A stretch of DNA of 36,059 nt from a virus (taxonomy: Duplodnaviria; Caudoviricetes): the IMG/VR virus record IMGVR_UViG_3300043174_000026, positions 1 to 36,059 of that record. One strand, written 5' to 3'. Position numbers and translations under genes: made by a program. How positions within the stretch are numbered: the first letter of the stretch is position 1; each line of letters starts with the position of its first letter. The notes under the pieces are model-generated. The model made no database searches and was not told the origin of the DNA. It was given only the letters and a program-made list of their open reading frames with translations. Shown here one piece after another: positions 21,135 through 34,999 of the stretch.

Positions 21135-21142
21135 TATAAATA
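21135..21142 (+). promoter_or_regulatory. T4-type late promoter TATAAATA
   Basis: Exact consensus in an intergenic position. Confidence 0.65.
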
Positions 21143-21715: not shown

Positions 21716-22399
21716 ATGAAAAAGCTGATTCTCGCGTTGCTGTTCTGTCTCACTGTTGTTGCTTCCGCGACAACACAGACGTTCTACAATCCGACGACGT
21801 TAGCGTTTGAGCATGATGATTACGATATCACGGATCATTATGTCGCGGAATTCTGGATTGCCCCCGCAACTGGGCAGCCGCTCGTAACGCGAGTGGTCGC
21901 GCAGGACGTTCCAAAGTCCAAGGTCACTATCGGGTCTCCGGGCCCTCCTGTGGTCTACAACCTGTTGTTCAAGGACATTCCCGTGTTCCTACCATTTGGT
22001 AAGAGCTACGTGTTGCGTCTCATCGCGTGCGGCACAACCGAGTGTGGTGAATCGAGCGAAGTGACTCCGGAGCAGGTGCGGTATACATACTGTAAGGCGA
22101 CACCAACGTCAGTGCGTCCTTTGACGATTGTGCAGGGCACGCAGGCGAACGGGTCACCAAGTGGTTATGTTCCGGTGGTGCTCACGATAGATTCTGTGCG
22201 TCCCGTGACATCGATTTCAGTTTCGTTAGTTGGCTCCGGGCAACCGGCATTCTACTTTACAGGCGACGATATGCGAAATACCATTACGCTCTCATTAGGA
22301 CCACTGCCCCGTGCGGGACGATACCTGATGAATATCTCCGCCGCGGACGAAGCAGGATGTTCAGCCTCCCAAGCGTCAGTGTTCCTCACTGTCCGCTAA
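21716..22399 (+). CDS. Secreted beta-rich hypothetical protein
   Basis: MKKLILALLFCLTVVASA signal peptide. Confidence 0.7.
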   Translation: MKKLILALLFCLTVVASATTQTFYNPTTLAFEHDDYDITDHYVAEFWIAPATGQPLVTRVVAQDVPKSKVTIGSPGPPVVYNLLFKDIPVFLPFGKSYVLRLIACGTTECGESSEVTPEQVRYTYCKATPTSVRPLTIVQGTQANGSPSGYVPVVLTIDSVRPVTSISVSLVGSGQPAFYFTGDDMRNTITLSLGPLPRAGRYLMNISAADEAGCSASQASVFLTVR

Positions 22400-22438
22400 A
22401 TACCGGCAAGTCATCCGGCAAAGTTTCTAAAATAGTGC

Positions 22439-22467
22439 TTGACACGGCAGAATTGCTGTGTTATACT
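22439..22467 (+). promoter_or_regulatory. Strong sigma70-type promoter at start of tRNA island
   Basis: TTGACA-17 nt-TATACT with A-rich upstream sequence. Confidence 0.85.
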
Positions 22468-22508
22468 GTATTTCGTTGAGTCGCTGAACGTGTTCAGTGC
22501 AAAGTTTT

Positions 22509-22582
22509 GGGCGCGTCATATAATGGGATTATGCTACGTTTGCACCGTAGTCATGCGGGTTCAATTCCTGTCGCGTCCACCA
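22509..22582 (+). tRNA. tRNA-Ala(TGC)
   Basis: GGGCGCG/CGCGTCC acceptor with G3:U70, CTACG-TTTGCAC-CGTAG, ends ACCA. Confidence 0.93.
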
Positions 22583-22586
22583 AGAT

Positions 22587-22711
22587 GGGGGTAATGTGGG
22601 TTCGATTCCCACCGGGTTAGGATTGATAATCCTGCTTGATTGATGCCCAAGTTGGTGTAACGGAGCCGCGGCTCCTAGACAAGTGCCGTCGTCTAACGGC
22701 AGGACGCCCCC
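22587..22711 (+). ncRNA. Circularly permuted tRNA-like RNA (T arm before D arm)
   Basis: GGGGG/CCCCC closing stem; T arm GTGGG-TTCGATT-CCCAC at 22596-22612; D arm GTCT-AACGGC-AGGAC at 22691-22705. Confidence 0.6.
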
Positions 22712-22716
22712 GAGTT

Positions 22717-23283
22717 ATGAGCAACATCTTTATCGTCAGTGATACTCACTTCGGACAGGAAAGCATCCTGCGTTTCCTGACTCCTACGGGAGAACGAATG
22801 CGTCCGATGTGGGAGACCGCGGATGAGATGGATGAAGCGCTGGTTGAGAATTGGAACAAGGTCGTTCGTCCGCAGGATAAGGTTTACCATTTGGGCGACG
22901 TGTCCATGAAGCGTCACAAGATTGAGGTCGTGGGACGTTGCAACGGACACAAGCGACTGGTGCGAGGGAATCACGACATCTTTCCGATGAAGTATTACCT
23001 CCCGTTCTTTGACGAGATTTATGGAACGCGGGTCTTTGACGACATGATTCTGTCGCACTTTCCGATTGTGCTGGACAGCATCAAGGACCGTTGGACATGC
23101 GTTCACGGACACGTTCATAACAACGTGCGCCCGGGGCACCTGGGACCGAAGTATCTGAACGTTAGCATTGAAGTGACGGAGTGGCGACCGCTTGCTATCG
23201 AGGAAGTTCGGCAGCGGATTCGCGCGGCGCGGGAGGCGGCGGAGCGAATTCAAGAGGCGTTAGATCACGGGGTCATCCTGTAG
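22717..23283 (+). CDS. Calcineurin-like metallophosphoesterase
   Basis: SDTHF, HLGD, RGNHD, SH.P, HGHVH. Confidence 0.92.
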   Translation: MSNIFIVSDTHFGQESILRFLTPTGERMRPMWETADEMDEALVENWNKVVRPQDKVYHLGDVSMKRHKIEVVGRCNGHKRLVRGNHDIFPMKYYLPFFDEIYGTRVFDDMILSHFPIVLDSIKDRWTCVHGHVHNNVRPGHLGPKYLNVSIEVTEWRPLAIEEVRQRIRAAREAAERIQEALDHGVIL

Positions 23284-23305
23284 CTCCGCCGCCTCGGAGG
23301 ATATC

Positions 23306-23605
23306 ATGGGAGAGAAGCGTTTTTCGGATTTTGAGTGGGAGCGTGTTGACTGGGCCAATGGAAAGCACGGCTGGGTCAAGCTGGATAACGGCTGGGTCGT
23401 GTCCGTGGTGTGTCACAAGTATTCGTATGGGGGTCCGCAGGGTCTCTACGAGGTGGCAGCACTATGGGACGATGAGCTAGTTCAGTTGTCCGACGAAGCA
23501 GACCAGGTCAAGGGCTGGCTGGACGAGCAAGGGGTTCAGGAGTTCGTGAACAAGGTTGCTGCACTGAAGCCTGGTAAGGTTCAGTTCAAGAGTATCATGA
23601 AGTAG
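23306..23605 (+). CDS. Hypothetical phage protein
   Basis: GGAGG RBS; SYGG..GLYEVA motif. Confidence 0.7.
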   Translation: MGEKRFSDFEWERVDWANGKHGWVKLDNGWVVSVVCHKYSYGGPQGLYEVAALWDDELVQLSDEADQVKGWLDEQGVQEFVNKVAALKPGKVQFKSIMK

Positions 23606-23686
23606 AGTTTGGGGCGTAATCTCCCGGCGCGTTGGCGCCAGTGAAAGCGAGTGGAGTCCTCTTTGATGGGGTTGCCCCGACGATTT

Positions 23687-23762
23687 GTCCCTGTCGTTCA
23701 ACGGAATAGGATACGACGCTACGAACGTCATGATAGAGGTTCAATTCCTCTCGGGGACACCA
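23687..23762 (+). tRNA. tRNA-Arg(ACG)
   Basis: GTCCCTG/CGGGGAC, anticodon loop CTACGAA, ACCA. Confidence 0.92.
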
Positions 23763-23763
23763 T

Positions 23764-23841
23764 CGGACGATAGCTCATCATTAGTAGAGCAGTCGGTTGA
23801 TAACCGACAGGTGGAAGGGGCAGGGCCTTCTCGTCCGACCA
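23764..23841 (+). tRNA. tRNA-Ile(GAT), non-canonical T loop
   Basis: CGGACGA/TCGTCCG, GTCGG-TTGATAA-CCGAC, T loop GGCAGGG, ACCA. Confidence 0.85.
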
Positions 23842-23848
23842 GTTATGT

Positions 23849-23923
23849 TCAAGGATAGCTTAACGGTAGAGCGCGAAGCTGTTAACTTCGGAGATCGTGG
23901 TTCGAATCCACGTCCTTGAGCCA
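23849..23923 (+). tRNA. tRNA-Asn(GTT)
   Basis: TCAAGGA/TCCTTGA, CGAAG-CTGTTAA-CTTCG, GCCA. Confidence 0.94.
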
Positions 23924-23928
23924 AATTC

Positions 23929-24003
23929 GCCGTTGTAGCTCAACAGTAGAGCGGCAGGTTGAAGCCCTGCGCGTAGGTGGTGCGACTCCATCCAGCGGCA
24001 CCA
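23929..24003 (+). tRNA. tRNA-Phe(GAA)
   Basis: GCCGTTG/CAGCGGC, GCAGG-TTGAAGC-CCTGC, ACCA. Confidence 0.9.
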
Positions 24004-24072
24004 ATCGGTCAGGGACAGCGTAAAAGTGCGCTGGCGTGAACTGCCATGGTCCCGAGTCGGCGCACAAATCAC

Positions 24073-24101
24073 TTGACAAATACAATGTCCTGTGAGATAC
24101 T
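24073..24101 (+). promoter_or_regulatory. sigma70-type promoter
   Basis: TTGACA-17 nt-GATACT. Confidence 0.65.
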
Positions 24102-24143
24102 AGCCACAATCAAACGCGCCCAGAGCGCACACGGAGAGACATC

Positions 24144-24524
24144 ATGAGATACACAGCAGGCGATGGCGTCACATACGCAGTCACGTTTGTTCATTCAGCA
24201 CACGACATCAAGCACACGCTTCCGGGCGCCCCGGGCGGTCTTCGGCAGATCGTTGACGGGCTCGCCAAGAGCCTTCGCCGGCGCGTGACGCTGTGTGAGA
24301 TCGCGCGGTTGGACCAGACCGAGACACTGGACCCGTTGACCACGGACTTCATTCCGACATTCACGACAGTCCCGCTGTCCTACGGGTTCTCGGTCTGCCA
24401 TTACTTTGACCAGTTCGTCAAGGCGCAGGGTCGTGCGCGAGCGTTCGAGCGAGCCCTGCGAGCGTCAAAGTTGGACAACTTCATTCGGGCAGAGCTTGAC
24501 AGCGCCTTGCGTTTGGGTGTCTAA
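24144..24524 (+). CDS. Hypothetical protein
   Basis: GGAG RBS; C...D.F.K..GR..A..RAL motif. Confidence 0.65.
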   Translation: MRYTAGDGVTYAVTFVHSAHDIKHTLPGAPGGLRQIVDGLAKSLRRRVTLCEIARLDQTETLDPLTTDFIPTFTTVPLSYGFSVCHYFDQFVKAQGRARAFERALRASKLDNFIRAELDSALRLGV

Positions 24525-24530
24525 CACATC

Positions 24531-24690
24531 GCCCGGTTGACCCGGGCAACAAGATGCGTGAGCCAGGTAGAGGGGGTTCGTTGGTACCGGCGGGGATAAA
24601 CCTCCGAAACGCATCGTCATTACCGCACCTGGTCCGAATCATAACGGCGTAGTCGACGCAACATGAGGCACCCCGGAGAGACGGGGACTT
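24531..24690 (+). ncRNA. Unassigned structured RNA with pseudoknot
   Basis: Non-coding gap with stems GATGCGT/ACGCATC, CCAGGT/ACCTGG, GCCCGG/CCGGGC, CCCCG/CGGGG. Confidence 0.45.
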
Positions 24691-24698
24691 TGAAATCT

Positions 24699-24790
24699 GG
24701 AAGGTCAATCCGACGGCCGGCGACGGAACTTGTCTTGAAAACAAGCGAGCCTAAACAGCCTTGGGAGTTCGATCCTCTCACCTTCCGCCA
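24699..24790 (+). tRNA. tRNA-Ser(TGA)
   Basis: GGAAGGT/ACCTTCC, CTTGT-CTTGAAA-ACAAG, long variable arm, GCCA. Confidence 0.9.
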
Positions 24791-24799
24791 AGATGTTTT

Positions 24800-24877
24800 C
24801 GGCCCGTGGCGGAATCTGGCATACGCGCAAGCCCGAGGAGCTTGTTTCTGTGGGTTCGACTCCCACCGGGCCGACCA
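24800..24877 (+). tRNA. tRNA-Leu(GAG), short variable arm
   Basis: CGGCCCG/CGGGCCG, CAAGC-CCGAGGA-GCTTG, ACCA. Confidence 0.88.
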
Positions 24878-24884
24878 GAAACAG

Positions 24885-25031
24885 TGGGGGACGTAGAATT
24901 ACGCAGAGAATGCCGGATGCTCAGAATGCTTTGTGAGAGGCGCCCCGGAAATCACGCTGCGGACAGCTTGGGACGCGGTTTTCTACTGTCAGCTAATCCG
25001 TGACGCACGGGAACACCCCAAAGCGTCCCAA
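24885..25031 (+). ncRNA. Unassigned structured RNA with pseudoknot
   Basis: TGGGG/CCCCA, CGCAG/CTGCG, GACAG/CTGTC, CCGTG/CACGG, loop TTGGGACGC pairing with GCGTCCCAA. Confidence 0.45.
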
Positions 25032-25045
25032 CTCTAAATGCGGAT

Positions 25046-25462
25046 ATGATGCTACAACGATTTGCTCAATTCGTATCAGAGGATTACGTTCCCGAGGAAT
25101 ATGTCATGAAGCCGGTCCCCGCCAAGGCCGCGTCGGACTTGCTCATGAAGTATCATTACTTGGGACGTTTGCCGCGAGCAACGGTGGTCGTTTGCGCCGT
25201 GTTTGACGGAGACAATCCTGAGCCCGTGGCAGCGGTGTTCTTTGGACATCCAGCGACCAAGTGGTCGGTGCCCGTGCTGGAACTGACGCGACACGGTTCA
25301 TCGTCCGCGAATGTGGTCAAGAGAGCGAATCCTGACCTTGAGATCGAAAAGCACGTCGCTGAAGGGAAGTATCTCTACTGGCGTGCATTGGATGGGAGAG
25401 CGGAGAAAGACGCCAAGACCGTTGGGCTGGAAAAGAACCCATACCCCAAACCCGGTCAGTAA
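25046..25462 (+). CDS. Mom-like (GNAT-related DNA modification) protein, apparently with internal in-frame deletion
   Basis: L.KYHYLGR.P, FG.PA, LELTR N-terminal motifs and K..Y...L ... PYPK C-terminus, but central catalytic region missing. Confidence 0.55.
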   Translation: MMLQRFAQFVSEDYVPEEYVMKPVPAKAASDLLMKYHYLGRLPRATVVVCAVFDGDNPEPVAAVFFGHPATKWSVPVLELTRHGSSSANVVKRANPDLEIEKHVAEGKYLYWRALDGRAEKDAKTVGLEKNPYPKPGQ

Positions 25463-25469
25463 GCATTAT

Positions 25470-25546
25470 GGTGGTTGGAGACAGATAGCGAGTCGACAGG
25501 CTGTGAACCTGTTCACTAGCGGGAGCGTTACCCGTCAGCCACCCCA
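25470..25546 (+). tRNA. tRNA-His(GTG)
   Basis: G-1 plus GTGGTTG/CAGCCAC, C73, ACAGG-CTGTGAA-CCTGT, CCA. Confidence 0.87.
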
Positions 25547-25562
25547 CAAAACGTGTAGAGCA

Positions 25563-25601
25563 ATTATTATGGACGCTAACGGGGTTAACGTCTATAATAA
25601 T
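25563..25601. repeat. 13-bp inverted repeat between tRNA-His and tRNA-Ser
   Basis: ATTATTATGGACG / CGTCTATAATAAT (one G-U pair). Confidence 0.7.
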
Positions 25602-25610
25602 AGACATTAC

Positions 25611-25702
25611 GGAAGCATGACAGAGCCAGGTAATGTGCCTGTTTGCTAAACAGAGACCATCCTGAAAGGGATGCGGACGTTCAAATCGTCCTGCTTCCGC
25701 CA
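25611..25702 (+). tRNA. tRNA-Ser(GCT)
   Basis: GGAAGCA/TGCTTCC, anticodon loop TTGCTAA, long variable arm CATCC-TGAAAG-GGATG, GCCA. Confidence 0.9.
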
Positions 25703-25722
25703 TTTGAAAGAAGGGTAGTTGT

Positions 25723-26139
25723 ATGTCGCAGTGGGGTATGGGAGTGATGATCAACATGTTGTGTGGTGAAGACCGCGGCACGAAACTGCTCGACGAGGCC
25801 GTTAACGGCAAGAAGAAGATCGCCGCGCTGTCACTTGACGCGGACGAGGGGCTTCGCGTGGAGTTCAAGGACGGGACCAAGTTCCGCATTTGGGACAATG
25901 GTCAGTCCTGTTGCGAGCGCCGCTACATGACGACAGATGACGACCTGAAGCATTATGTCGGGAGCACGATTCGCGACGTGGAGCTTGCGGATGCTCCGGG
26001 TAATGAAGATGAGTATGGTGAGTGCCACGAGGTTCAGTTCCTTCGCATCAAGACGACGAAGGGGACGCTGGTGTTGGAGTCGCACAACGAGCACAACGGC
26101 TACTATGGCGGATTCTACATCGTCATCACGGCCGAGTAA
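25723..26139 (+). CDS. Conserved phage hypothetical protein
   Basis: QSCCE...F..I.T.KG.....HNGYYGG motif. Confidence 0.72.
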   Translation: MSQWGMGVMINMLCGEDRGTKLLDEAVNGKKKIAALSLDADEGLRVEFKDGTKFRIWDNGQSCCERRYMTTDDDLKHYVGSTIRDVELADAPGNEDEYGECHEVQFLRIKTTKGTLVLESHNEHNGYYGGFYIVITAE

Positions 26140-26146
26140 GAGCCGC

Positions 26147-26307
26147 GCCGGGTACGCTCCCGGCTAGTCAGGGGAGGGTGAACCCCCGATGATTGAAGCC
26201 CCGTAGCGGATGGGGCAAACAAACGCCCGATGGTAAGGTTTACCCGTGTGGGAGCCACGTTAGGAGGCAACGGGGGAGCGATTCGAAGCGCGTCGATCCC
26301 GACCTCC
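26147..26307 (+). ncRNA. Unassigned multi-hairpin structured RNA
   Basis: GCCGGG/CCCGGC, TAGTCA/TGATTG, GCCCCGT/ATGGGGC, GGTAA/TTACC, GGAGG/CCTCC, long-range CGCTCCC/GGGAGCG. Confidence 0.42.
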
Positions 26308-26320
26308 ACTTCCATCATAT

Positions 26321-26395
26321 CGGGGCGTAGCGTAGAGGTCACGCGCTCGGTTCGGGACCGAGATCACGCAGGTTCGAGTCCTGCCGCCCCGACCA
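26321..26395 (+). tRNA. tRNA-Pro(CGG)
   Basis: CGGGGCG/CGCCCCG, CTCGG-TTCGGGA-CCGAG, ACCA. Confidence 0.92.
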
Positions 26396-26409
26396 CTTTG
26401 GAGAAGACG

Positions 26410-27000
26410 ATGGGCGACAGCGAATTTCGAGAGTTCAACAAAATCCCGCGATTGAACCGGGATTGTATCATCACCGAGAAGATCGACGGCACGAACGCCC
26501 AGATTTTCATTGACGAGACGGGCCTCGTGCTTCGTGCGGGGAGTCGTTCCCGCTGGATCACACCAACGGAAGACAACCACGGATTTGCGAAGTGGGTCGA
26601 GGAGCACCGGGAGGAGTTACTCAAGCTCGGACCGGGACGACATTTCGGAGAGTGGTGGGGTTTTGGCATCAACCGGGGCTATGGTCTCACCAAGGGTGAC
26701 AAGCGGTTCTCCTTGTTTAATACGTCACGGTGGAAGACGATCTGCTCGGATGCCGAGGGACTAACTCCCCTGCCTGGATGCTGTGGAGTTGTGCCGATTC
26801 TCTATTCAGGACCGTTCACGACGAACGCGGTAGAGAATGCTGTCGCGGAACTCCGCGCAACAGGAAGTGTTGCGGCACCCGGATTCATGAAGCCAGAGGG
26901 TGTGGTGGTTTACCATGTCCACGGCAACTGTATGTTCAAGGTGACGCTGGAAAACGATGAGATTCCGAAGTCCGTGCTTGACAAGCAGCGGAAAGTGTGA
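26410..27000 (+). CDS. ATP-dependent RNA ligase (Rnl2-like adenylyltransferase domain)
   Basis: Motif I EKIDGTN, GSRSR, GEWWG, F.LF, motif IV PEGVV, motif V FK; GGAG RBS before ATG 26410. Confidence 0.88.
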   Translation: MGDSEFREFNKIPRLNRDCIITEKIDGTNAQIFIDETGLVLRAGSRSRWITPTEDNHGFAKWVEEHREELLKLGPGRHFGEWWGFGINRGYGLTKGDKRFSLFNTSRWKTICSDAEGLTPLPGCCGVVPILYSGPFTTNAVENAVAELRATGSVAAPGFMKPEGVVVYHVHGNCMFKVTLENDEIPKSVLDKQRKV

Positions 27001-27006
27001 GATACT
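26978..27006 (+). promoter_or_regulatory. sigma70-type promoter
   Basis: TTGACA-17 nt-GATACT just before tRNA-Pro. Confidence 0.65.
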
Positions 27007-27018
27007 GTTAATGTTCGT

Positions 27019-27096
27019 CGGGGAATAGCCTAGCCTGGCCAAGGCGCTTGCTTTGGGAGCAAGAGACCGGGGGTTCGAATCCCTCTTCCCCGACCA
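27019..27096 (+). tRNA. tRNA-Pro(TGG)
   Basis: CGGGGAA/TTCCCCG, CTTGC-TTTGGGA-GCAAG, ACCA. Confidence 0.93.
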
Positions 27097-27111
27097 TCCT
27101 TTGGGGTATTT

Positions 27112-27330
27112 ATGAAGTTGAAAGTGAGAAAGCAAGTGAGCGAATCGTCAAGTGCGAAGAGCGGTGGCATCGGATTCACGGGATTGTTGACGATTTTGTT
27201 CATCGGTCTCAAGCTGACTGGCTACATCGACTGGAGTTGGTGGTGGGTGCTGTCCCCGATCTGGATTAGCTTCCTGCTCGCTTTCGTCATCACCTTGGTC
27301 GCGGTGATCGTTCTTGCGTTGGAGAAGTAA
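27112..27330 (+). CDS. Small two-TM membrane protein
   Basis: GIGF.GLLTI.FI.LKL.G.IDWSWWWVLSPIWI, a widespread phage small membrane protein pattern. Confidence 0.8.
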   Translation: MKLKVRKQVSESSSAKSGGIGFTGLLTILFIGLKLTGYIDWSWWWVLSPIWISFLLAFVITLVAVIVLALEK

Positions 27331-27331
27331 C

Positions 27332-27619
27332 ATGCAGGAACAAGACGACAAACTCGTCTATGAGATTGTAGATAGCGAACGTCCGGAGAACAACGTCATC
27401 GTTGACCCGAATGCGGGCCCGGTTCCGGAGACCCCGGAGCAGATCGCAGCACGTCGGGAAGAGATGTACCAGCGAGCGGCCCATGCGGCTCGGATTCTCC
27501 TGGCCGAGAAGATCAACAAGCGTCGGGAGAAGGAAAATCTTCGGGCGCTCAAGGGACGAGTTGCCAAGCGTCGAAAGAGGGAAAAGCTAGCCAAGGCGTC
27601 CCGTAAGCGGAACCGGTGA
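27332..27619 (+). CDS. Hypothetical protein with basic C-terminus
   Basis: GGAG RBS; KRRKREKLAKASRKRNR tail. Confidence 0.65.
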   Translation: MQEQDDKLVYEIVDSERPENNVIVDPNAGPVPETPEQIAARREEMYQRAAHAARILLAEKINKRREKENLRALKGRVAKRRKREKLAKASRKRNR

Positions 27620-27661
27620 ACTTCGCGCATATATACCTATTGCGCGGCAGGCGATGCGAGT

Positions 27662-27739
27662 GCCCGGGTGACGGAATTTGGCATACGTGCGTGGCTTAGA
27701 ACCACGATTTTGCAGGTTCGACTCCTGTCCCGGGCACCA
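27662..27739 (+). tRNA. tRNA-Leu(TAG), short variable arm
   Basis: GCCCGGG/CCCGGGC, CGTGG-CTTAGAA-CCACG, ACCA. Confidence 0.9.
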
Positions 27740-27748
27740 ACTTTTTAC

Positions 27749-27777
27749 TTGACAGCGCGTGTGAAAAGAGTTATATT
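27749..27777 (+). promoter_or_regulatory. sigma70-type promoter upstream of the large structured RNA
   Basis: TTGACA-17 nt-TATATT. Confidence 0.75.
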
Positions 27778-27792
27778 GAATACTCAATCGCA

Positions 27793-27805
27793 CGCTCTTT
27801 GACAA
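27793..27805 (+). promoter_or_regulatory. boxA-like antitermination motif
   Basis: CGCTCTTTGACAA resembles rRNA/lambda boxA (YGCTCTTTAACA). Confidence 0.55.
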
Positions 27806-28134
27806 CTGAATAACAGGACCCTGGCAGAAAACCTCGTTCTACGGGGGTAATGCACTCACACAAAGGGGTGTGTGGGGTACATATGGGGGTGCCGAGGATA
27901 GCGTATCTGGAGGCTGTGACAGCGCAACCCTGACAAGTCACAGACGAGCGGATGGCTAGCTGGTAGCTATACTTTTAATAGCCTATCAGTAGACGGTAGG
28001 TCTGGGAGCTAATCTCCCCGTTCGTGTTGAAGTGCTGATTGCAACAGCATGGAGCGACGTTGCGTAATAATCTAGAGCACTCATGAAAGTTTCGGGATTG
28101 ATGTAGTTCCGAGGGTCCTGTTATTCAGTTGTCA
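27800..28134 (+). ncRNA. Large multi-stem structured RNA enclosed by a perfect 23-bp terminal stem
   Basis: TGACAACTGAATAACAGGACCCT (27800-27822) is the exact reverse complement of 28112-28134; no ORF of 60 aa or more inside; many internal stems. Confidence 0.7.
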
Positions 28135-28147
28135 CGCGGGGGAAAGC

Positions 28148-28825
28148 ATGACAAATAGAACAGACATCACGTTCATTCTGGATCGTAGCGGAAGCATGTG
28201 TTCCATGGCGAACGATGTGGTAGGTGGTTGGAAGTCGTTCATCGAGAAGCAGAAGACCGAGGTCGGCGAGTGCGTGTTGTCACTCGTTCAGTTTGACGAC
28301 CAGTATGAGACACCGTTCACCGCGGTACCGATCCAGAACGTGAGTCCGTCGCTTCACTTTGTGCCACGAGGTTCAACTGCGTTGCGTGACGCGATTGGGC
28401 GCACAATCAATGCCGTCGGAGCGCGTCTTCGGTCGCTTCCGGGGTCGGAGCGTCCTAACAAGGTCGCCATTGTAGTGATGACAGATGGAGAAGAGAACGC
28501 ATCGCGCGAGTTCTCACAGGCGCAGCTCAAGAGCATGGTGGAACACCAGACAAACAAATACGGCTGGGACTTCTTGTTCTTGGGAGCGAACATCGATTCG
28601 TTTGATGTGGGAACGTCCTACGGTGTGCAGCCGCGTTGGATTACCAACTACTCATACACGAGCGAGGGTATGAAGGCGGGACTGAATACGGTATCGTGCT
28701 ACACGTCCGTGCTGCGCACCGGCGGAACGTTGACCGGCACACTCGCGCAGGCGCAGGCAGTCAACGAGGCTGCCGAGAACGAGAACATCAACCGGAATCT
28801 CAACACGACTTCGGGAGCCGTATAA
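28148..28825 (+). CDS. von Willebrand factor A (MIDAS) domain protein
   Basis: ILDRSGSM, VQFD, PRGSTALRDAIG, MTDGEENAS.E, W.F.FLGAN. Confidence 0.92.
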   Translation: MTNRTDITFILDRSGSMCSMANDVVGGWKSFIEKQKTEVGECVLSLVQFDDQYETPFTAVPIQNVSPSLHFVPRGSTALRDAIGRTINAVGARLRSLPGSERPNKVAIVVMTDGEENASREFSQAQLKSMVEHQTNKYGWDFLFLGANIDSFDVGTSYGVQPRWITNYSYTSEGMKAGLNTVSCYTSVLRTGGTLTGTLAQAQAVNEAAENENINRNLNTTSGAV

Positions 28826-28828
28826 ATA
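28821..28828 (+). promoter_or_regulatory. T4-type late promoter TATAAATA upstream of the CAT-anticodon tRNAs
   Basis: Exact consensus overlapping the vWA stop codon. Confidence 0.55.
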
Positions 28829-28845
28829 CAGCACTGAAATTTTGT

Positions 28846-28920
28846 TGCTGGTTGGCCGAGCGATAAGGCAACGTCCTCATAAGGCGTCCTAGATGGGTTT
28901 GACTCCCATACCAGCGACCA
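28846..28920 (+). tRNA. tRNA-Met or Ile2 (CAT)
   Basis: TGCTGGT/ACCAGCG, ACGTC-CTCATAA-GGCGT, ACCA. Confidence 0.85.
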
Positions 28921-28925
28921 CGAAT

Positions 28926-29001
28926 CGCGGGAAGGTGAACGAGTGGACACGCTTGGCTCATAACCAAGACATGGCAGGCGCGACTCCTGCTCCCGCAACC
29001 A
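28926..29001 (+). tRNA. Initiator-like tRNA-fMet(CAT)
   Basis: CGCGGGA/TCCCGCA with C1:A72 mismatch, CTTGG-CTCATAA-CCAAG, ACCA. Confidence 0.85.
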
Positions 29002-29003
29002 AC

Positions 29004-29029
29004 TTGCCAGACACGCGCGTGTCTGGCAA
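29004..29029. repeat. Perfect 26-bp palindrome
   Basis: TTGCCAGACACGCGCGTGTCTGGCAA. Confidence 0.9.
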
Positions 29030-29128
29030 CACCACGAATATTCTCCACCTCTAACGGTGGCCGTGAACGTCACAGCGTTCTAGACACCCTGTGAATATCG
29101 GTATCTTCAAGTGGGGATATTCGTTTCC

Positions 29129-29206
29129 GGGCTTCTGAAGGGAACTGGCATACCTCGTTCGCTTAAAACGAATGGCATGTGGGTTCGACTCCCACGGAGC
29201 CCACCA
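29129..29206 (+). tRNA. tRNA-Leu(TAA), short variable arm
   Basis: GGGCTTC/GGAGCCC, GTTCG-CTTAAAA-CGAAT, ACCA. Confidence 0.88.
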
Positions 29207-29230
29207 TTCACTCTAATCAAAAGGAACCCA

Positions 29231-29320
29231 ATGTTTTTGGCACTCGCAATCGGTACGACGTTCGTTATCGGTACGGCTCTTGTCGTTTATTACAACCACA
29301 ACACTTACTCACGCGCCTAA
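29231..29320 (+). CDS. 29-aa membrane peptide
   Basis: AAGGA RBS; MFLALAIGTTFVIGTALVVYY. Confidence 0.5.
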   Translation: MFLALAIGTTFVIGTALVVYYNHNTYSRA

Positions 29321-29367
29321 CGAAACAGATACATACTCTTGAACCCGTTTTCATGAGGTGAAAGAGT

Positions 29368-30288
29368 ATGGCAATCCCTGTTCTCGTAGAATTCTTCAAT
29401 CGGCCGTGGACGAAAATCATTTCGTCTTACCTTCTTGTTTTGTTGATGGGAATCGGACTCGGGGTGTGGGGCACCAACAAGTGGCAGGAGCCTCCCAAGC
29501 CCGAAGTCCGAATCGTGGAGAACGTCAAGTATGTGGACGTTCCTGTTGAGAAGATCGTCACAAAGACAGTCACCAAGTATGTCCGCGACACAAAGGAAGT
29601 TACTCGCCTCTTGAATGAGGCTGCCGCGGCGGAACTCCGCATCGCAACACTGACGGAAACGATTGCGATGCTCAAGACCACGACTGTCGCGCCCCCGGAA
29701 GTCAAGACCGTATTTGTGACGACTCCTGGTGCTCCGGAGGCGCATTTCAAGGACTGGCGCCTGACGTTTGACGCGACAGCATCACAGACAACGTATCAAC
29801 TAGATCAGAAATTCGAAGCGATTGCTGCTATCGGAAAGGACAAGGACGGAAAGCCCGTCGTTAAGACCCGACTTTTTGAGATTGGTCCAGGTGAGACGCG
29901 CACGGAGATGTCGGACGCCAGCACGATTGTCGTGAGTGCGACTCCGAATCCGAAAAAATGGCGATTGTCGGGGAGTATTCAGGCGGGATTCGGAGGGTCC
30001 TACGATACAGGGGCAAAGAAGGGCGTCTCTGGTGGTGTGGTGGGACTCCAGTGGCTCAAACGAGGAACGAGTAAGGCTGCTGAGGACAACACGTTGTCAT
30101 TGCTGACTCCTGTGGCATTCATTTCTCCCGGAGTGATTGAGCCAGGATTGCTCCCTGCCTCGATAAACTTGGGAAGAATCCCGAAGCAGCCATTCAAGGA
30201 CCTGTGGGCGTCTCCGTTGATAGCATTCGGCAAAGCACCAAACGTCTCACCGACACGATTCGGTTTTGTCTTGACAGCGACGTTCTAA
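29368..30288 (+). CDS. Membrane-anchored coiled-coil protein (spanin-like or secreted)
   Basis: GAGGT RBS; N-terminal TM, VEKIVTKTVTKYV and helical stretch; ends GFVLTATF like an outer-membrane beta signal. Confidence 0.6.
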   Translation: MAIPVLVEFFNRPWTKIISSYLLVLLMGIGLGVWGTNKWQEPPKPEVRIVENVKYVDVPVEKIVTKTVTKYVRDTKEVTRLLNEAAAAELRIATLTETIAMLKTTTVAPPEVKTVFVTTPGAPEAHFKDWRLTFDATASQTTYQLDQKFEAIAAIGKDKDGKPVVKTRLFEIGPGETRTEMSDASTIVVSATPNPKKWRLSGSIQAGFGGSYDTGAKKGVSGGVVGLQWLKRGTSKAAEDNTLSLLTPVAFISPGVIEPGLLPASINLGRIPKQPFKDLWASPLIAFGKAPNVSPTRFGFVLTATF

Positions 30289-30299
30289 CGTGCTATACT
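30271..30299 (+). promoter_or_regulatory. sigma70-type promoter (likely leaderless mRNA)
   Basis: TTGACA-17 nt-TATACT, ATG 7 nt downstream. Confidence 0.75.
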
Positions 30300-30306
30300 G
30301 TTTGCC

Positions 30307-30705
30307 ATGAAGATCGGATTCACGGGAACGCAACAGGGAATGACGGAGCGACAGACAGAAAAGCTCGCGGACATCCTTTGGCAGAATCGTGATAAGGTCA
30401 CGGAGTTCCATCATGGGGATTGCATGGGCGCGGATTCCGAGGCGCATGAGGTCGCGGAAGCGGCGTTTGGTGCCAAGAAAATCTGGGTCCATCCGCCCGA
30501 TGACGCAAAGAAGCGGGCGTTTCGGGTGTCTTCACACGTAGCGCGTCCTCGCCCGTATCTGGAACGGAATCGGGCTATCGTGGATGCGTCCGACATGGTG
30601 ATTGCTGCTCCCAAGTCAATGACGGAAGAACTCCGGTCGGGAACTTGGGCAACTGTGCGCTACGCTCGTAAGACGGGTAAGCGTGTTTTGATTCTGGAGC
30701 CGTAG
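30307..30705 (+). CDS. SLOG (DprA/LOG-like Rossmann) family protein
   Basis: IGFTGT, HHGDC.GAD, RNR.IVD..D..IA.P, SGTWATVRYA. Confidence 0.8.
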   Translation: MKIGFTGTQQGMTERQTEKLADILWQNRDKVTEFHHGDCMGADSEAHEVAEAAFGAKKIWVHPPDDAKKRAFRVSSHVARPRPYLERNRAIVDASDMVIAAPKSMTEELRSGTWATVRYARKTGKRVLILEP

Positions 30706-30897
30706 ATGAGTGAACCAACGTTGATCGTGACGGGAATTAGTGGGGCGACGAAGATCGTCACCAAGCTGTATGGTCCGGTGTCCCCGGAACGTGCGGCACG
30801 CGCCAAGGCAGAAGCACAGCATCGCGCCGAGCAATTGAATCCGGACAAGATTCAGAAGCTCCGTGAGCGTGTGTTCTACGTGGAAGAGGACGAGTAA
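30706..30897 (+). CDS. Hypothetical protein
   Basis: Abuts upstream stop codon; GGAG RBS. Confidence 0.55.
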   Translation: MSEPTLIVTGISGATKIVTKLYGPVSPERAARAKAEAQHRAEQLNPDKIQKLRERVFYVEEDE

Positions 30898-30903
30898 GAT
30901 TTC

Positions 30904-30981
30904 CGGAGCGTGGCGGAACCTGGCATACGCAGCAGTCTCAAACACTGCCTTTTGAGGGTTCGACTCCCTCCGCTCCGACCA
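30904..30981 (+). tRNA. tRNA-Leu(CAA), short variable arm
   Basis: CGGAGCG/CGCTCCG, GCAGT-CTCAAAC-ACTGC, ACCA. Confidence 0.9.
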
Positions 30982-30995
30982 TCATCGAGGAAACC

Positions 30996-31532
30996 ATGCG
31001 CCGACTATTTTCGCTTGTAGTAATGTGCTTGTTCTGTGCGTCTCTCGCGAGCGCGGACCCAATCATCCTGACGTTCAATGCGTCGAATCCCTCGACTGGG
31101 CTGGAGGTCACATATCTCACGTTGACCTATACGGAGACAGAGGGAGGCGTATGGGTTTCAGGGCAGTTCGGTTTTAATCCCGATGATGCGACTGGCGATG
31201 AGTGGGCGGGGTGGACGTTTGATGGCGCGGGATTCCGGGGATTCGATCCGAGTCTGACATGGATCGGAAACGATGTATTCATGCCGAAGTATTCGTTTGC
31301 GAGTCTCGCGGGTCTGTGGGTGGATGCCCGTTGGTCGGGCCCGTGTCCGTTGTGTCCGCCACCCGGTCCTGTTATTGAGGAGCCCGAGGAGACACCATGT
31401 GAGATCGTGATTTCGCAGCAGTTTCCTCCGACACCCGTGCCTGAGCCTAGTGGAATATTGCTCATGGCAACGGGGTTGGGAGCGTTGGGACTCTTTAGGA
31501 GATTCGCCCGTGAGTCTAGAAAAAGCGATTGA
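30996..31532 (+). CDS. PEP-CTERM sorting-signal surface protein
   Basis: Signal peptide ending ASA-D; C-terminal PVPEPSGILLMATGLGALGLFRR. Confidence 0.85.
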   Translation: MRRLFSLVVMCLFCASLASADPIILTFNASNPSTGLEVTYLTLTYTETEGGVWVSGQFGFNPDDATGDEWAGWTFDGAGFRGFDPSLTWIGNDVFMPKYSFASLAGLWVDARWSGPCPLCPPPGPVIEEPEETPCEIVISQQFPPTPVPEPSGILLMATGLGALGLFRRFARESRKSD

Positions 31533-31872
31533 GCACGGGAAGGAACATCGAAAGCCTTGGCGGCGTAGCGCACGTTTTGACCCTGCGTGTCGTCCTCACG
31601 GCGGATGCGGATACTGTGAGGGAAATCGCATGGTCCAGGTTCGCAAGATCCGGGAACGGGCCGCGGACGACTTGAAGAACGACAACCCAAAGCTTCCCCC
31701 GCAATTTGATGGGGAGTTACAGGTAGACGTTGCCAGTCGCGTTCACATGACGGACCAGGAGTATGATGACTTCCTGACCTATAAGTATGGTGACGACCCG
31801 GAGTGTGATGACTTCCGGCCCTATACGTATGGTGAGGATTGGCTTTATGGATATGAACCGGACTACGACTGA
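31510..31872 (+). CDS. Conserved phage protein with Cys/His cluster and acidic tandem repeat
   Basis: AGGAG RBS before GTG 31510; KAIEHGKEHRKP...D..CR.HGGC.YC..NR. Confidence 0.72.
   Translation: MSLEKAIEHGKEHRKPWRRSARFDPACRPHGGCGYCEGNRMVQVRKIRERAADDLKNDNPKLPPQFDGELQVDVASRVHMTDQEYDDFLTYKYGDDPECDDFRPYTYGEDWLYGYEPDYD
31759..31839 (+). repeat. Imperfect 42-nt tandem repeat
   Basis: GAGTATGATGACTTCCTGACCTATAAGTATGGTGAC vs GAGTGTGATGACTTCCGGCCCTATACGTATGGTGAG. Confidence 0.75.
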
Positions 31873-32390
31873 TGGCTCGCAAACGCATTCGCTGTTTTGC
31901 TGATTTCCCGTTCGCACAGTATCCGGATGCTCGGGTGCCGTGGGATGATGTGTATCTCCGTTGGAAGGGTAAGCCCGGGCGCACTGTCTATCGTGCTGCG
32001 CCGTGTCTGGAGTGTGACGCGGAACTGAAGGTTGAACTCAAGATCCATGAGGATATCCGGAATCGTGAGGATACGGACGAGGTGAACGTGCTGGACTCTC
32101 TCCGCCCAGCGCGAACGACGACGAAGGAAGAACGCCAATCTTGGTACCGTGACGAGGACGCAACGTATCAGCGGGTCCTCAAAGACCTTGAGACAGTGAA
32201 CTACGCGGAATCTGGTGAGGGCGCTGGGCTGTGCCTCTACACCAAGGCAGCGGGCATCAACAAGCACGAAGCGGAACGGATGCTTGCGTGGTGGCTAAAT
32301 AAGACACACGGCATTCGGAATCCGAAGTTCGTGTGGAACCGCCCCAAGATTATCGTGACGCCGATGGGATTCGGGGAGTATCCGGAATAA
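31872..32390 (+). CDS. Hypothetical protein
   Basis: TGATG coupling; 172 aa. Confidence 0.65.
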   Translation: MARKRIRCFADFPFAQYPDARVPWDDVYLRWKGKPGRTVYRAAPCLECDAELKVELKIHEDIRNREDTDEVNVLDSLRPARTTTKEERQSWYRDEDATYQRVLKDLETVNYAESGEGAGLCLYTKAAGINKHEAERMLAWWLNKTHGIRNPKFVWNRPKIIVTPMGFGEYPE

Positions 32391-32476
32391 TTCTGCGTAG
32401 AATAGGGACTTTAATCTACGCATCTCGGACTCGAAAATGACAGTTTCCTGCTACAATACTAGTAGGAGGTTACATC

Positions 32477-32680
32477 ATGGACGAACAGAAATTCGCAACG
32501 CTTAACAACTGGCAGATCACTTGGATGCTCATCAAAGCCCCGATCATGGGCGCGCTCTTTGTGATGTTCTTGCCCGTTATCGGATTCGTGATATTCGGAA
32601 AGTTCGGAGTAGACAAGGCAGTGGAAGTCATGAGGAAGAGATTCAAACACGGCGATAAGCACACTGCTGGCGTGGTCTAA
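32477..32680 (+). CDS. Small membrane protein
   Basis: AGGAGG RBS; APIMGALFVMFLPVIGF; stop lies inside tRNA-Arg. Confidence 0.65.
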   Translation: MDEQKFATLNNWQITWMLIKAPIMGALFVMFLPVIGFVIFGKFGVDKAVEVMRKRFKHGDKHTAGVV

Positions 32681-32742
32681 CGGACAAAGGCTCCCGGTTT
32701 CTACCCGGGTAGATGTGGGTTCAACTCCTGCCGCCAGCACCA
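32666..32742 (+). tRNA. tRNA-Arg(TCT)
   Basis: GCTGGCG/CGCCAGC, CCCGG-TTTCTAC-CCGGG, ACCA. Confidence 0.9.
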
Positions 32743-32744
32743 AC

Positions 32745-32820
32745 GGGTGCGAAGCTCATATGGATGAGCAGGCGGCTTTTAACCGTCAGGTAGGGAGTTC
32801 GAACCTCCCCGCACCCACCA
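32745..32820 (+). tRNA. tRNA-Lys(TTT)
   Basis: GGGTGCG/CGCACCC, GGCGG-CTTTTAA-CCGTC, ACCA. Confidence 0.92.
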
Positions 32821-32827
32821 TTACACT

Positions 32828-33253
32828 ATGAAGATTCCACTTGCGGTCTCCGAAGCGATGTTTCACCATGCGAATGTCAACCGGGATGATCTCCATCTTG
32901 CGTTGCGGCACATGGCACCATATTTCTTGAAGGGGGAATTCCGGAAAGCGTGGAGTGACGGAAATCCGACACGCTACTTTGACTATGTGGTGACGGAGTG
33001 GTTGGCGCATTTCCGAGCGCCAGCGGGTTCGTTCGCGTTCAGAGTTGCTGTTCCGGGACAGGACGCGAAACACTACTTCATGCGTTGGCCGGACGGGACG
33101 ATTGTGGACTTGACTGCCGAGCAGTTTTCCGAGTGGGAGTTGGTAGACTATGCGGAGTCTAAGAAAGCAAGTATGCCAGGCACTCCGACGAATCGAGCGA
33201 AAGTCCTAGACACGCTCTTACTCGCGCAACAGGGACTCCGAAGTTTGCCGTAA
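32828..33253 (+). CDS. Hypothetical protein
   Basis: HYF....G.IVDLTAEQF motif; 141 aa. Confidence 0.65.
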   Translation: MKIPLAVSEAMFHHANVNRDDLHLALRHMAPYFLKGEFRKAWSDGNPTRYFDYVVTEWLAHFRAPAGSFAFRVAVPGQDAKHYFMRWPDGTIVDLTAEQFSEWELVDYAESKKASMPGTPTNRAKVLDTLLLAQQGLRSLP

Positions 33254-33260
33254 ATAGTGC

Positions 33261-33289
33261 TTGACAAGCGGCATGGCATGTGTGATAAT
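33261..33289 (+). promoter_or_regulatory. sigma70-type promoter
   Basis: AAATAGTGC-TTGACA-17 nt-GATAAT; same upstream context as the 22439 promoter. Confidence 0.75.
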
Positions 33290-33313
33290 GGTTCTACGAT
33301 TTTGGGAGACACG

Positions 33314-33517
33314 ATGACTGAAACGAATGAAACGGTAACAACGGAACAGGGCACGGGCACGAAGTTCAAGGAAATGGGACTGTCAGAGTGTGCCAAGTTC
33401 GATATGAAGAACCGTGTGCGAGAGCACCTCACGGGCTGGGGACTCATCTGCAAGACGCGGTTTGAGAAGCACCAGTCTAAGCGGGGCGAGCGTCGTCGCG
33501 CACGGAAGGGCCGGTAA
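33314..33517 (+). CDS. Small basic hypothetical protein
   Basis: GGGAG RBS before ATG 33314. Confidence 0.6.
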   Translation: MTETNETVTTEQGTGTKFKEMGLSECAKFDMKNRVREHLTGWGLICKTRFEKHQSKRGERRRARKGR

Positions 33518-33518
33518 T

Positions 33519-33592
33519 GCGGCTGTAGCACAATGGTAGTGCAAGGCGTTGCCAACGCTTAGATGCGGGTTCGATCCCCGCCAGCCGCTCCA
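33519..33592 (+). tRNA. tRNA-Gly(GCC)
   Basis: GCGGCTG/CAGCCGC, AGGCG-TTGCCAA-CGCTT, TCCA. Confidence 0.94.
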
Positions 33593-33593
33593 C

Positions 33594-33668
33594 GCACCGT
33601 TGGCGGAGTAGTTTACGCACTTGCCTGCAAAGCAAGGTACGCTGGTGTGATTCCAGCACGGTGCTCCA
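33594..33668 (+). tRNA. tRNA-Cys(GCA)
   Basis: GCACCGT/ACGGTGC, CTTGC-CTGCAAA-GCAAG, TCCA. Confidence 0.87.
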
Positions 33669-33671
33669 TGT

Positions 33672-33746
33672 GCTACCAAAGCATAGATAGCGATGCGCCC
33701 GCCTCGTAAGCGGGAGAGGGTGCTGCAAGTTCACCTGGTAGCTCCA
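33672..33746 (+). tRNA. tRNA-Thr(CGT), atypical T arm
   Basis: GCTACCA/TGGTAGC, CCCGC-CTCGTAA-GCGGG, TCCA. Confidence 0.8.
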
Positions 33747-33748
33747 GT

Positions 33749-33822
33749 GCGGACATCGTATAATGGTATTACCTGAGCCTTCCAAGCTCATGATGCGGGT
33801 TCGATTCCCGCTGTCCGCTCCA
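33749..33822 (+). tRNA. tRNA-Gly(TCC)
   Basis: GCGGACA/TGTCCGC, TGAGC-CTTCCAA-GCTCA, TCCA. Confidence 0.95.
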
Positions 33823-33856
33823 ATATGCTGTTGTGTTGTGCGAATGGTAGGGTATC

Positions 33857-34069
33857 GTGTCGCGAATTCAGGTAGAGTTGTTCTGTGAGGACACGGGCGC
33901 GACGTTGATTTGTTGGGTTGACCGCGATGCCCGTCTTAAAGGGCCAGGAATTCGCTTGACATTGAAGGAGTTTCCTGATATACTATGAGCTTTGGTCAAC
34001 ATTTATCGTGAGGTCGCAATAGACCCTGCGATGTTGCACCGAACGTGGAAAGTAGGTGGGTTGTCGTAA
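33857..34069 (+). pseudogene. 70-codon frame interrupted by one in-frame TGA (33986-33988)
   Basis: MSRIQVELFCEDTGATLICWVD...EFPDIL*ALVNIY...LHRTWKVGGLS; final TAA overlaps next ATG (TAATG). Confidence 0.5.
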
Positions 34070-34491
34070 TGCAGACGTTTCTCCCCGTGGTGATCGACAA
34101 ACTCCCGATGTTGTCTTGCGCGTCGTCCGCTAAAGTGCTGGACCGGCAACGACTCGGGAAGCAGCGCGTGGAAGCGTGGCAGATTTATCGGACTCTGATG
34201 GGCGAGTCTAGCGGATGGCGCAACCATCCTGCCGTTCGAATGTGGCGGGGGTATGAGTTGGCGCTATCCGTCTACGGGCGGATCATGTGCGTGGAGTGGG
34301 CTGCGCGTGGGTACGTGGACAACCTATTCTCTCGCTTCCCGCAGACGTGGTCAGAGAAGTTTCCGGATTGGATGTGGGACCCAGCGTTTAGCGCGTCTCA
34401 CCGTGCCAATCTGTTGCGAAAAAAACCGGAGTGGTACGGACAGTTCGGATGGATTGAGGACCCGTCGCTCCCTTACGTTTGGCCGGTGTAA
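34069..34491 (+). CDS. Pyrimidine-dimer DNA glycosylase / endonuclease V-like protein
   Basis: MQTFLP, LD..RLGKQRVE..QI, GW.NHPAV.MW.GY, SHR.NLLRK.P.WY, Y.WP. Confidence 0.88.
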   Translation: MQTFLPVVIDKLPMLSCASSAKVLDRQRLGKQRVEAWQIYRTLMGESSGWRNHPAVRMWRGYELALSVYGRIMCVEWAARGYVDNLFSRFPQTWSEKFPDWMWDPAFSASHRANLLRKKPEWYGQFGWIEDPSLPYVWPV

Positions 34492-34556
34492 CTCAACGGC
34501 AGAGTTCCTGTTTTGTAAGCAGGGAGTTGGAGGTTCGAATCCTCTCGCCGGCTCCA
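34482..34556 (+). tRNA. tRNA-Thr(TGT)
   Basis: GCCGGTG/CGCCGGC, CCTGT-TTTGTAA-GCAGG, TCCA. Confidence 0.93.
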
Positions 34557-34569
34557 GTTGAAGGTGGTT

Positions 34570-34668
34570 ATGGAGACGTATCATATCGTTGCGGCCGCAC
34601 TTATTGGTATCGTTGTGCTCGCTGTTGTGGGATTGTTCTTGTGGGCGGACCACAGAAAGCCGCGTTAG
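34570..34668 (+). CDS. 32-aa single-TM peptide
   Basis: AAGGTGG RBS; METYHIVAAALIGIVVLAVVGLFLWADHRKPR; stop inside tRNA-Thr. Confidence 0.55.
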   Translation: METYHIVAAALIGIVVLAVVGLFLWADHRKPR

Positions 34669-34996: not shown

Positions 34997-34999
34997 CAT

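Follow-up and report, generated by a model that had tools for sequence, protein, structure and literature searches.

A conserved phage RNA with a pre-rRNA-like stalk and a predicted kissing loop in the tRNA array of a T4-like phage

Large structured non-coding RNAs (ncRNAs) of phages and prophages are known from the neighborhood of transfer RNA (tRNA) genes. In the cited passages of the literature, ROOL (RF03087) is defined as an RNA of ~580 nucleotides (nt) with six multistem junctions as well as three pseudoknots (PMC5737381), and its oligomer is known by cryo-electron microscopy (cryo-EM) as a nanocage (10.1101/2024.12.08.627333). GOLLD (RF02032), often longer than 800 nt, occurs in phage tRNA islands, and OLE and ARRPOF, which are not phage tRNA-array RNAs, form homodimers through kissing loops, ARRPOF being an RNA of 255 nt and thus similar in size to the element described here (PMC12990946). 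According to the part of their paper considered here, near-adjacent loop covariation between palindromes backs symmetric kissing loops, as in OLE L9.3, which switches between palindromes, and GOLLD L21a, which covaries between them, both seen by cryo-EM (Kretsch et al., 10.1101/2024.12.08.627333). The present analysis concerns a 335-base element at positions 27800-28134 of a 36,059-nt stretch of DNA (hereafter the window: positions 1 to 36,059 of IMG/VR virus record IMGVR_UViG_3300043174_000026; Duplodnaviria, Caudoviricetes), which an initial annotation made from the sequence alone had described as a large unclassified structured RNA built like a ribosomal RNA (rRNA) precursor. The element is almost certainly a real structured RNA, and on balance we lean towards reading it as a conserved, covarying phage ncRNA with its own promoter, which would be processed at its terminal stalk and would likely oligomerize.

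Two diverged homologs, both syntenic and both in related T4-like phages, carry the evidence for an RNA. The first was located through a search with the downstream vWA protein, in which one of 13 loci (L111) held the element; it lies at the same site in a 136-kb T4-like phage record (G026) and is 78.4% identical over 356 nt. By comparison, the vWA gene reaches 73% and the matched protein-gene segments mostly 65-75%, and the element is the most conserved of the >150-nt matches to G026 within 19-36 kb. The second (X3) is a whole element on one contig of a public wastewater metagenome run, ~88% identical, with 35 substitutions and 6 gap letters. Near-identical strains carrying the single change C27842T, which turns a G-C pair into G-U, are present in two further runs (X1, possibly the source of the window, and X2), and G-C/G-U exchanges on the plus strand point to RNA. 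With the helix names P1 to P11 coined for this analysis, the window and G026 differ by 11 double compensatory changes (one each in P1, P1b, P7b, and P11, two each in P4 and P6, and three in P8), a count that is partly circular because both sequences were consulted when the helices were selected. X3 provides the independent test: across 62 pairs chosen without it (P1, P1b, P4, P6, apical P7, P8, P10, and P11), four compensatory doubles, one compatible single, and no broken pairs were counted by eye, the other X3 changes falling in loops, linkers, or provisional helices. When 35 substitutions were placed at random in a simulation, four or more doubles arose with a probability of 1.4-3.2e-4. Covariation in homologs, which had been named beforehand as a test of the RNA model, is present against both G026 and X3.

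The core comprises two multiway junctions, with seven helices backed by compensatory changes or a conserved slip (Table 1). Among the stems listed in the initial annotation, CTGTGAC/GTCACAG, GGAG/CTCC, and TGCTG/CAGCA covary and CTGGTAG/CTATCAG is kept around a variable loop, but AGAC/GTCT is broken in both homologs, and the suggested pseudoknot GCGCAAC/GTTGCGT did not hold up, losing 3 of its 7 pairs in G026 and one in X3 (T28061A). The picture for ACGAGCGG/CCGTTCGT is mixed: it gains one compensatory change in X3 (C27945T with G28024A), where its end pair is broken, forms only in a bulged version in G026, and competes with P7a and P9. Helix P4, hairpin P11, and the palindromic loop treated below had been overlooked. 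Hairpin P5 was rejected as invariant and without support, 27896-27899 being able to pair with 28070-28073 instead, and the invariant AACCCUGA of the P6 loop is a possible partner of the P3 loop by complementarity, with no covariation between the two. Including the terminal stem, the element folds with a z of -5.24 (0 of 100 shuffles as stable); the interior alone reaches -1.65 (8 of 150 shuffles) and the homolog interior -2.5 (1 of 150), so that the strength lies mostly in the terminal stem and the case for the interior rests on covariation, not stability. As stated before, no long open reading frame (ORF) is enclosed, the longest stop-free run across 27785-28150 being 63 codons on the minus strand, and no conserved ORF was found in the element, whose frames differ between the window and its homolog.

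The terminal helix, P1, has a close counterpart in bacterial rRNA precursors. As described in the passages cited, boxA recruits the rRNA antitermination complex and helices of this kind are RNase III substrates (PMC10250234, PMC5725501), and RNase III needs or accommodates ~22 base pairs (bp) (PMC6212723). In the window, the boxA-like motif CGCTCTTTGACAA (27793-27805) and the perfect 23-bp inverted repeat (27800-27822/28112-28134; 23 nt, 100% complementary, 289 nt between the arms) are present as the initial annotation had them, and the promoter TTGACA-17-TATATT that it placed at 27749-27777 is correct in coordinates and sequence. Of 44 listed inverted repeats, the 25 longest include no other perfect pair, and P1 measures 23 bp in the window and 22-26 bp in G026. 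The window holds a single boxA-like site, which is an exact bacterial boxA, and in G026 the two stem arms are the sole ones. Counting this promoter, 22000-36059 has 14 promoter-like sites (7.5 expected), and from the sequence we infer a transcription start near 27782-27786, ~15 nt upstream of the stem; no terminator-like site was found 3' of the terminal stem.

The 19-mer at 27794-27812 occurs in ~650 GTDB stretches. Among 120 such loci, the site lies 68-74 nt before a 16S rRNA gene and behind a promoter in 3 cases and within 600 nt after 16S in 11; of the 80 loci fetched in full, 22 lie near an rRNA landmark, in leaders or spacers (one confirmed by Rfam). Of 12 operons with a whole 16S, 11 contain a leader boxA; a loose criterion puts it inside the predicted leader-trailer duplex in 10, and inspection by eye shows clear pairing in 8. 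At one locus (L293), the rRNA trailer is nearly identical to the phage 3' arm. At the sequence level, P1 thus matches the bacterial pre-rRNA stalk in both sequence and arrangement: the extended boxA is the same, and in the rRNA operons examined, too, boxA itself forms the stalk. The element differs from pre-rRNA in that its stalk encloses 289 nt without rRNA similarity and in that boxA is partly lost in one homolog. Processing of the RNA at this stalk is probable.

A DNA-level interpretation, in which the element is a mobile or structural feature such as a miniature inverted-repeat transposable element (MITE), a retron ncRNA, or a cruciform and not a functional RNA, would account for the perfect 23-bp terminal inverted repeat and the lack of an ORF, but it is largely refuted and very improbable. 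The element is present in one copy per genome at an orthologous site in the homologs, with differing flanks and no target-site duplication; its repeat is the boxA stalk, and its interior covaries and tolerates G-U pairs. A retron ncRNA was rejected because, despite the terminal inverted repeats, the neighbors are tRNA-Leu and vWA and no reverse transcriptase is adjacent, RVT_1 (PF00078) being found in 0 of 5 records that are themselves incomplete (10-75% complete).

Similar stems occur elsewhere. Of 78 distinct contexts in which the arm 15-mer occurs in viruses, 11 have TCTT before it, and in an unrelated AT-rich phage (L138 3001-3340, minus strand) a 90-codon ORF sits inside a boxA terminal stem, like an RNase III-processed messenger RNA. 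At Firmicutes loci outside rRNA operons (L257, L279, L280, L259, and similar ones) the same boxA is the 5' arm of long stems, and many Acidobacteriota loci carry boxA away from rRNA. Five ROOL loci used as controls (L460-L464; three are close relatives) all have a long terminal helix right behind a promoter-like sequence, with a boxA-like arm in one of the five by script and partly in another by eye, and the arms of L460 and L461 resemble the rRNA boxA stalk; the passages on ROOL in the literature contained no mention of this likeness. The viral arm contexts, L138, and the ROOL helices together indicate that the boxA-stem device also occurs beyond this RNA.

The apical loop of P10 (28039-28044) is a palindromic hexamer in all three copies. 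In X3, T28040A and A28043T change it and leave it palindromic, and since 28040 and 28043 are two bases apart, they cannot pair within one hairpin; in G026, the same loop stands on a different, longer, unalignable stem. It is somewhat likely that this loop pairs with the same loop of another copy, so that the RNA would self-associate. An alternative is a phage RNA that is stable as a monomer, like T4 RNAC and RNAD or raiA, and has a binding partner among the host or phage proteins. It fits all the covariation and stalk evidence equally, and the long invariant single-stranded blocks at 27827-27843, 27893-27910, and 28085-28098 suggest a conserved binding surface for it. RNAC and RNAD lie in the tRNA cluster and are much shorter and tRNA-processed. 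As RNAs of a T4-type phage they offer a precedent for a monomer, being expressed and stable with a function that the cited passage gives as not known (PMC9697503). A monomer with a coincidental palindrome is nevertheless the less probable account, as it leaves unexplained why the hexamer survives full stem replacement in G026 and changes only symmetrically in X3.

The P10 loop might also be an anticodon mimic of tRNA-Ala, the RNA acting as a decoy that draws in anticodon nucleases of the host or other defenses that read tRNAs. The 7-nt loop of the window, on a stem of 5-6 bp, reads U-UGC-A and is Ala-like, X3 has AGC, which is also Ala, and the setting would suit such a role: the RNA sits among tRNA genes, an RNA ligase lies 1 kb upstream, and G026 has RtcB. 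Position 37 of tRNA is a purine, however, and X3 has U at the equivalent position; the G026 loop has 8 nt or is bulged, and neither ARAGORN nor Rfam found a tRNA body, all of which makes mimicry improbable.

The reading as a processed, self-associating RNA has several points weighing against it. The alignment consists of three distinct sequences, all close kin, and lies below R-scape-grade statistics. The interior without its stem folds only modestly better than shuffles; P2, in which G27845A breaks or slips one pair, and P3, with its register slip, were outside the 62-pair test; and P10 is not in the minimum-energy fold of the window, with an ensemble pair probability of 0.02. The two models of the inner junction flip in rank (A -53.1 vs B -64.7 kcal/mol in the window; A -70.4 vs B -63.1 in G026), so that the inner junction stays between them. 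The palindrome represents a single double-change event, with a chance of 0.07-0.11 given two changes and 0.014-0.018 overall, and ~4-5 palindromic hexamers are expected by chance at this length; a second shared palindrome, CATATG (27880-27885), is broken in X3 (T27882C), and for a third candidate, GCGC/GAUC (27922-27925), an internal helix in G026 is an equally good explanation. At the stalk, X3 has a 4-nt deletion at 27794, and the 5' half of boxA is degenerate and effectively gone in G026, where its complement is still found in the 3' arm. As the paired part is kept while the boxA 5' half is lost, it is the helix that appears conserved rather than NusB binding, and its conserved role is then more likely processing than NusB antitermination. 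The earlier comparison with an rRNA precursor consequently stands for the genuine bacterial boxA and the pre-rRNA-like stalk, but NusB antitermination is disfavored as what the homologs conserve.

Table 1. Features of the element and its immediate neighbors (window coordinates).
Feature	Coordinates	Strand	Remarks
Sigma-70-type promoter TTGACA-17-TATATT	27749..27777	+	11/12 consensus matches; TTGACA-17-TATACT at the same place in G026
Extended boxA	27794..27812	+	Exact 19-mer of bacterial rRNA leaders/spacers; overlaps 5' arm of terminal helix
P1 5' arm, 23 bp, pre-rRNA-like leader-trailer stalk	27800..27822	+	One compensatory change, C-G to U-A, in G026; X3 unchanged
P1b/P2 hairpin, A-rich internal loop	27824..27853	+	In both minimum-energy folds; A-U to U-G in G026; G27845A in X3 breaks/slips one P2 pair
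P3 hairpin	27856..27875	+	Loop AAGGGG (27863-27868) in all three copies; 1-nt register slip in G026 and X3 keeps helix
P4 5' strand	27887..27892	+	Long-range helix with 28077-28082, closes inner domain; 2 compensatory changes, same in G026 and X3
P6 hairpin	27914..27943	+	Loop: invariant AACCCUGA plus GCGC/GAUC; 2 compensatory changes in G026
P7 arm	27946..28003	+	Apical CUGGUA/UAUCAG helix, variable loop; indels of both homologs fall in loop; lower part has competing models
P8 hairpin	28004..28018	+	3 compensatory changes in G026
P10 hairpin	28032..28050	+	On provisional P9 (28019-28029/28055-28064); 2 compensatory and 2 one-sided compatible changes in X3
Palindromic apical hexamer, predicted symmetric kissing loop	28039..28044	+	UUGCAA in window and G026; UAGCUA in X3
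P4 3' strand	28077..28082	+	Partner of 27887-27892
P11 hairpin	28093..28111	+	Invariant loop GAUGU; abuts P1 directly; U-A to C-G in G026
P1 3' arm (trailer)	28112..28134	+	Perfect complement of 27800-27822; no intrinsic terminator after
tRNA-Leu(TAG)	27662..27739	+	Directly upstream of element; same tRNA upstream in G026, there with tRNA-Glu between
Stand-alone vWA-domain gene	28148..28825	+	PHROG 7371; Pfam VWA in G026 copy; weak integrin I-domain matches; neighbor of element

Comparison with Rfam agrees with the earlier claim that the RNA is unclassified, no family matching at gathering scores. At E<=10, the region 27600-28300 gave only tRNA matches and one sub-threshold plastid match on a tRNA, and there was no match to the Rfam models of OLE, raiA, ARRPOF, manA, 6S, SRP, RNase P, group I and II introns, or riboswitches. 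The ROOL model RF03087 had no match at E<=10 (0 of 2 records), the same model being positive in 5 of 151 Lactobacillales genomes, and RF02032, which covers the conserved 3' domain of GOLLD, had none in the window or G026, while G077 scores 263 bits. Transfer-messenger RNA (ARAGORN lists none, and there is no conserved ORF), RNase P and group I introns (no model match, and the element is not inside a gene), and packaging RNA (G026 has T4-type small and large terminases) were likewise rejected.

The element nevertheless shares with ROOL a place near tRNAs in phage or prophage genomes (PMC5737381; 10.1101/2024.12.08.627333) and a long terminal helix, as in the five ROOL control loci. By eye, the two also have in common a top junction whose first hairpin has an internal loop rich in purines and which includes a small hairpin next to the terminal helix. 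Symmetric kissing loops, predicted in the case of the element, are common to both, and neither has a known protein partner. ROOL differs in length (~580 nt vs 335 nt), in topology, the element having two junctions and no supported pseudoknot, and in spread, being present in several phyla as against three copies; moreover, its oligomer is known by cryo-EM, whereas that of the element is predicted from sequence. GOLLD shares the setting in phage tRNA islands but is the longer RNA, and the single GOLLD locus read is without a boxA-like arm; OLE, for its part, has dedicated protein partners. The element is therefore best classed as a new RNA family within a known kind, being ROOL/GOLLD-like in context, terminal helix, and predicted kissing loop while failing their models, length, and topology.

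The vWA gene downstream had been proposed as a possible partner, and the RNA could correspondingly be a cis-acting 5' leader or ribonucleoprotein partner of that gene. Both are on the same strand, with a ribosome-binding site 3 nt after P1 and no terminator, and vWA follows the RNA in 3 of 3 copies. The remaining local order (tRNA-Leu, tRNA-Met, and the upstream ORF) is equally syntenic, however, the RNA occurs in 0 of 12 other vWA relatives, and a 122-nt structured spacer separates RNA and gene in G026, so the partnership was not borne out and the leader reading has little probability. The spacer (L111 4874-4995; z -2.6), which is absent from the window, is closed by a stem of 11 bp and contains two complementary pairs that interleave and might form a pseudoknot; it has no Rfam match. 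AAA_5-type ATPases are the usual partner kind of vWA proteins, and G026 encodes such an ATPase, which offers an alternative partner. A TROVE domain was found in 0 of the 5 incomplete records (10-75% complete), and a Y RNA/Ro60 system was rejected for want of a TROVE-domain ortholog, the downstream protein being vWA alone.

The window is part of a T4-like phage with genes for a family B DNA polymerase, UvsX, helicase, primase, and ribonucleotide reductase, and the closest cultured polymerases are those of cyanophages (~43%). The element lies in a tRNA array, between tRNA-Leu(TAG) (27662-27739) and the vWA gene starting at 28148. In this array of 23-25 genes, ARAGORN counts 23 tRNA genes and Rfam 22; the Rfam tRNA matches at 28926-28998 and 33672-33743, missed by ARAGORN, are possibly atypical tRNAs. 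Within the array, 1 kb upstream of the RNA, lies an RNA ligase (PF09414; 26410-27000), and G026 encodes RtcB (L373 11937-13112), which together suggest tRNA repair against host anticodon nucleases. The T4 late-promoter octamer TATAAATA occurs twice in the window (21135-21142 and 28821-28828; 0.11 expected), and 7 additional promoters of the sigma-70 type, bearing TTGACA or a close variant of it, punctuate the array. Further gaps without coding sequence lie in the array at 23605-23685, 24003-24068, 24525-24665, and 26140-26320; they have closing stems or tRNA-like ends, and their folding does not surpass that of shuffled sequences (z -0.2 to -1.0; the last was folded up to 26280).

Among larger collections, viral pattern scans (110 arm-only, 11, 3, 2, and 63 matches) returned G026 as the sole true homolog, with none from the arm-only scan. 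A metagenome scan gave 22 matches, none of them real, a GTDB two-anchor pattern scan gave 0 matches, INPHARED phages gave two records with a 25-nt boxA match only, and a plasmid collection held no copy; these collection scans used exact patterns, which distant members can escape. One of 26 DNA-polymerase, vWA, and boxA-stem records was a real homolog, and among 80 RNA-ligase loci the element was found in G026 alone (L377, a near-identical strain, ends before the RNA), BLAST of 50 of those whole RNA-ligase records giving one 24-nt match. A weak covariance model of the 5' domain (R1), built from two sequences, recovered just its 2 training copies from 100 sources (1.53 Mb) and G026 alone from 32 records; its match at E 0.003 in 1 of 151 genomes of the Acidobacteriota phylum was rejected, as it looks protein-coding and is without the stem and 3' half. 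No account of this RNA was found in the literature full text, the scope of which did not extend to bioRxiv supplements, and four short motifs of the element were absent from 8 supplementary files of PMC8040213.

Taken as a processed and self-associating RNA, the element might be made as follows. Host sigma-70 polymerase would initiate ~15 nt upstream of the stem at the promoter seen there, and boxA, where intact, may recruit the rRNA antitermination and folding complex, although it is degenerate in one homolog. The 23-bp helix, supported by its sequence and one covarying pair, would form once the 3' arm emerges and be cut by RNase III, a cleavage proposed because no terminator follows the stem. 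The core would then fold into its two multiway junctions, and the loop 28039-28044, with one covarying event and one conservation, may pair with the same loop of another copy. By analogy with what has been hypothesized for ROOL and GOLLD, the product could finally act as an RNA-only scaffold or sponge in a tRNA-supply module, for example by sheltering tRNAs or absorbing RNA-directed host defenses, a role that we regard as speculative. Equally tentative is the wider proposal that the element represents a third family of phage RNA particles that self-assemble, one that evolved independently, is roughly half as long as ROOL, and is made via the host rRNA line (boxA, stalk, RNase III); the rRNA stalk would then be a biogenesis route shared by phage ornate RNAs including ROOL.

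In the part of their study considered here, Kretsch et al. left open how common cage formation is among large natural RNAs (10.1101/2024.12.08.627333), and ROOL and GOLLD are without a known function. The element comes from the same genomic niche, is unrelated to both, and combines a length of 335 nt with a predicted symmetric kissing loop; it is thus a small and cheap test case, with three natural variants as controls, including a natural palindrome swap. Its stalk would make it a phage ncRNA that uses a host pre-rRNA signal, and such use may be wider, to judge from the hint that the ROOL controls give.
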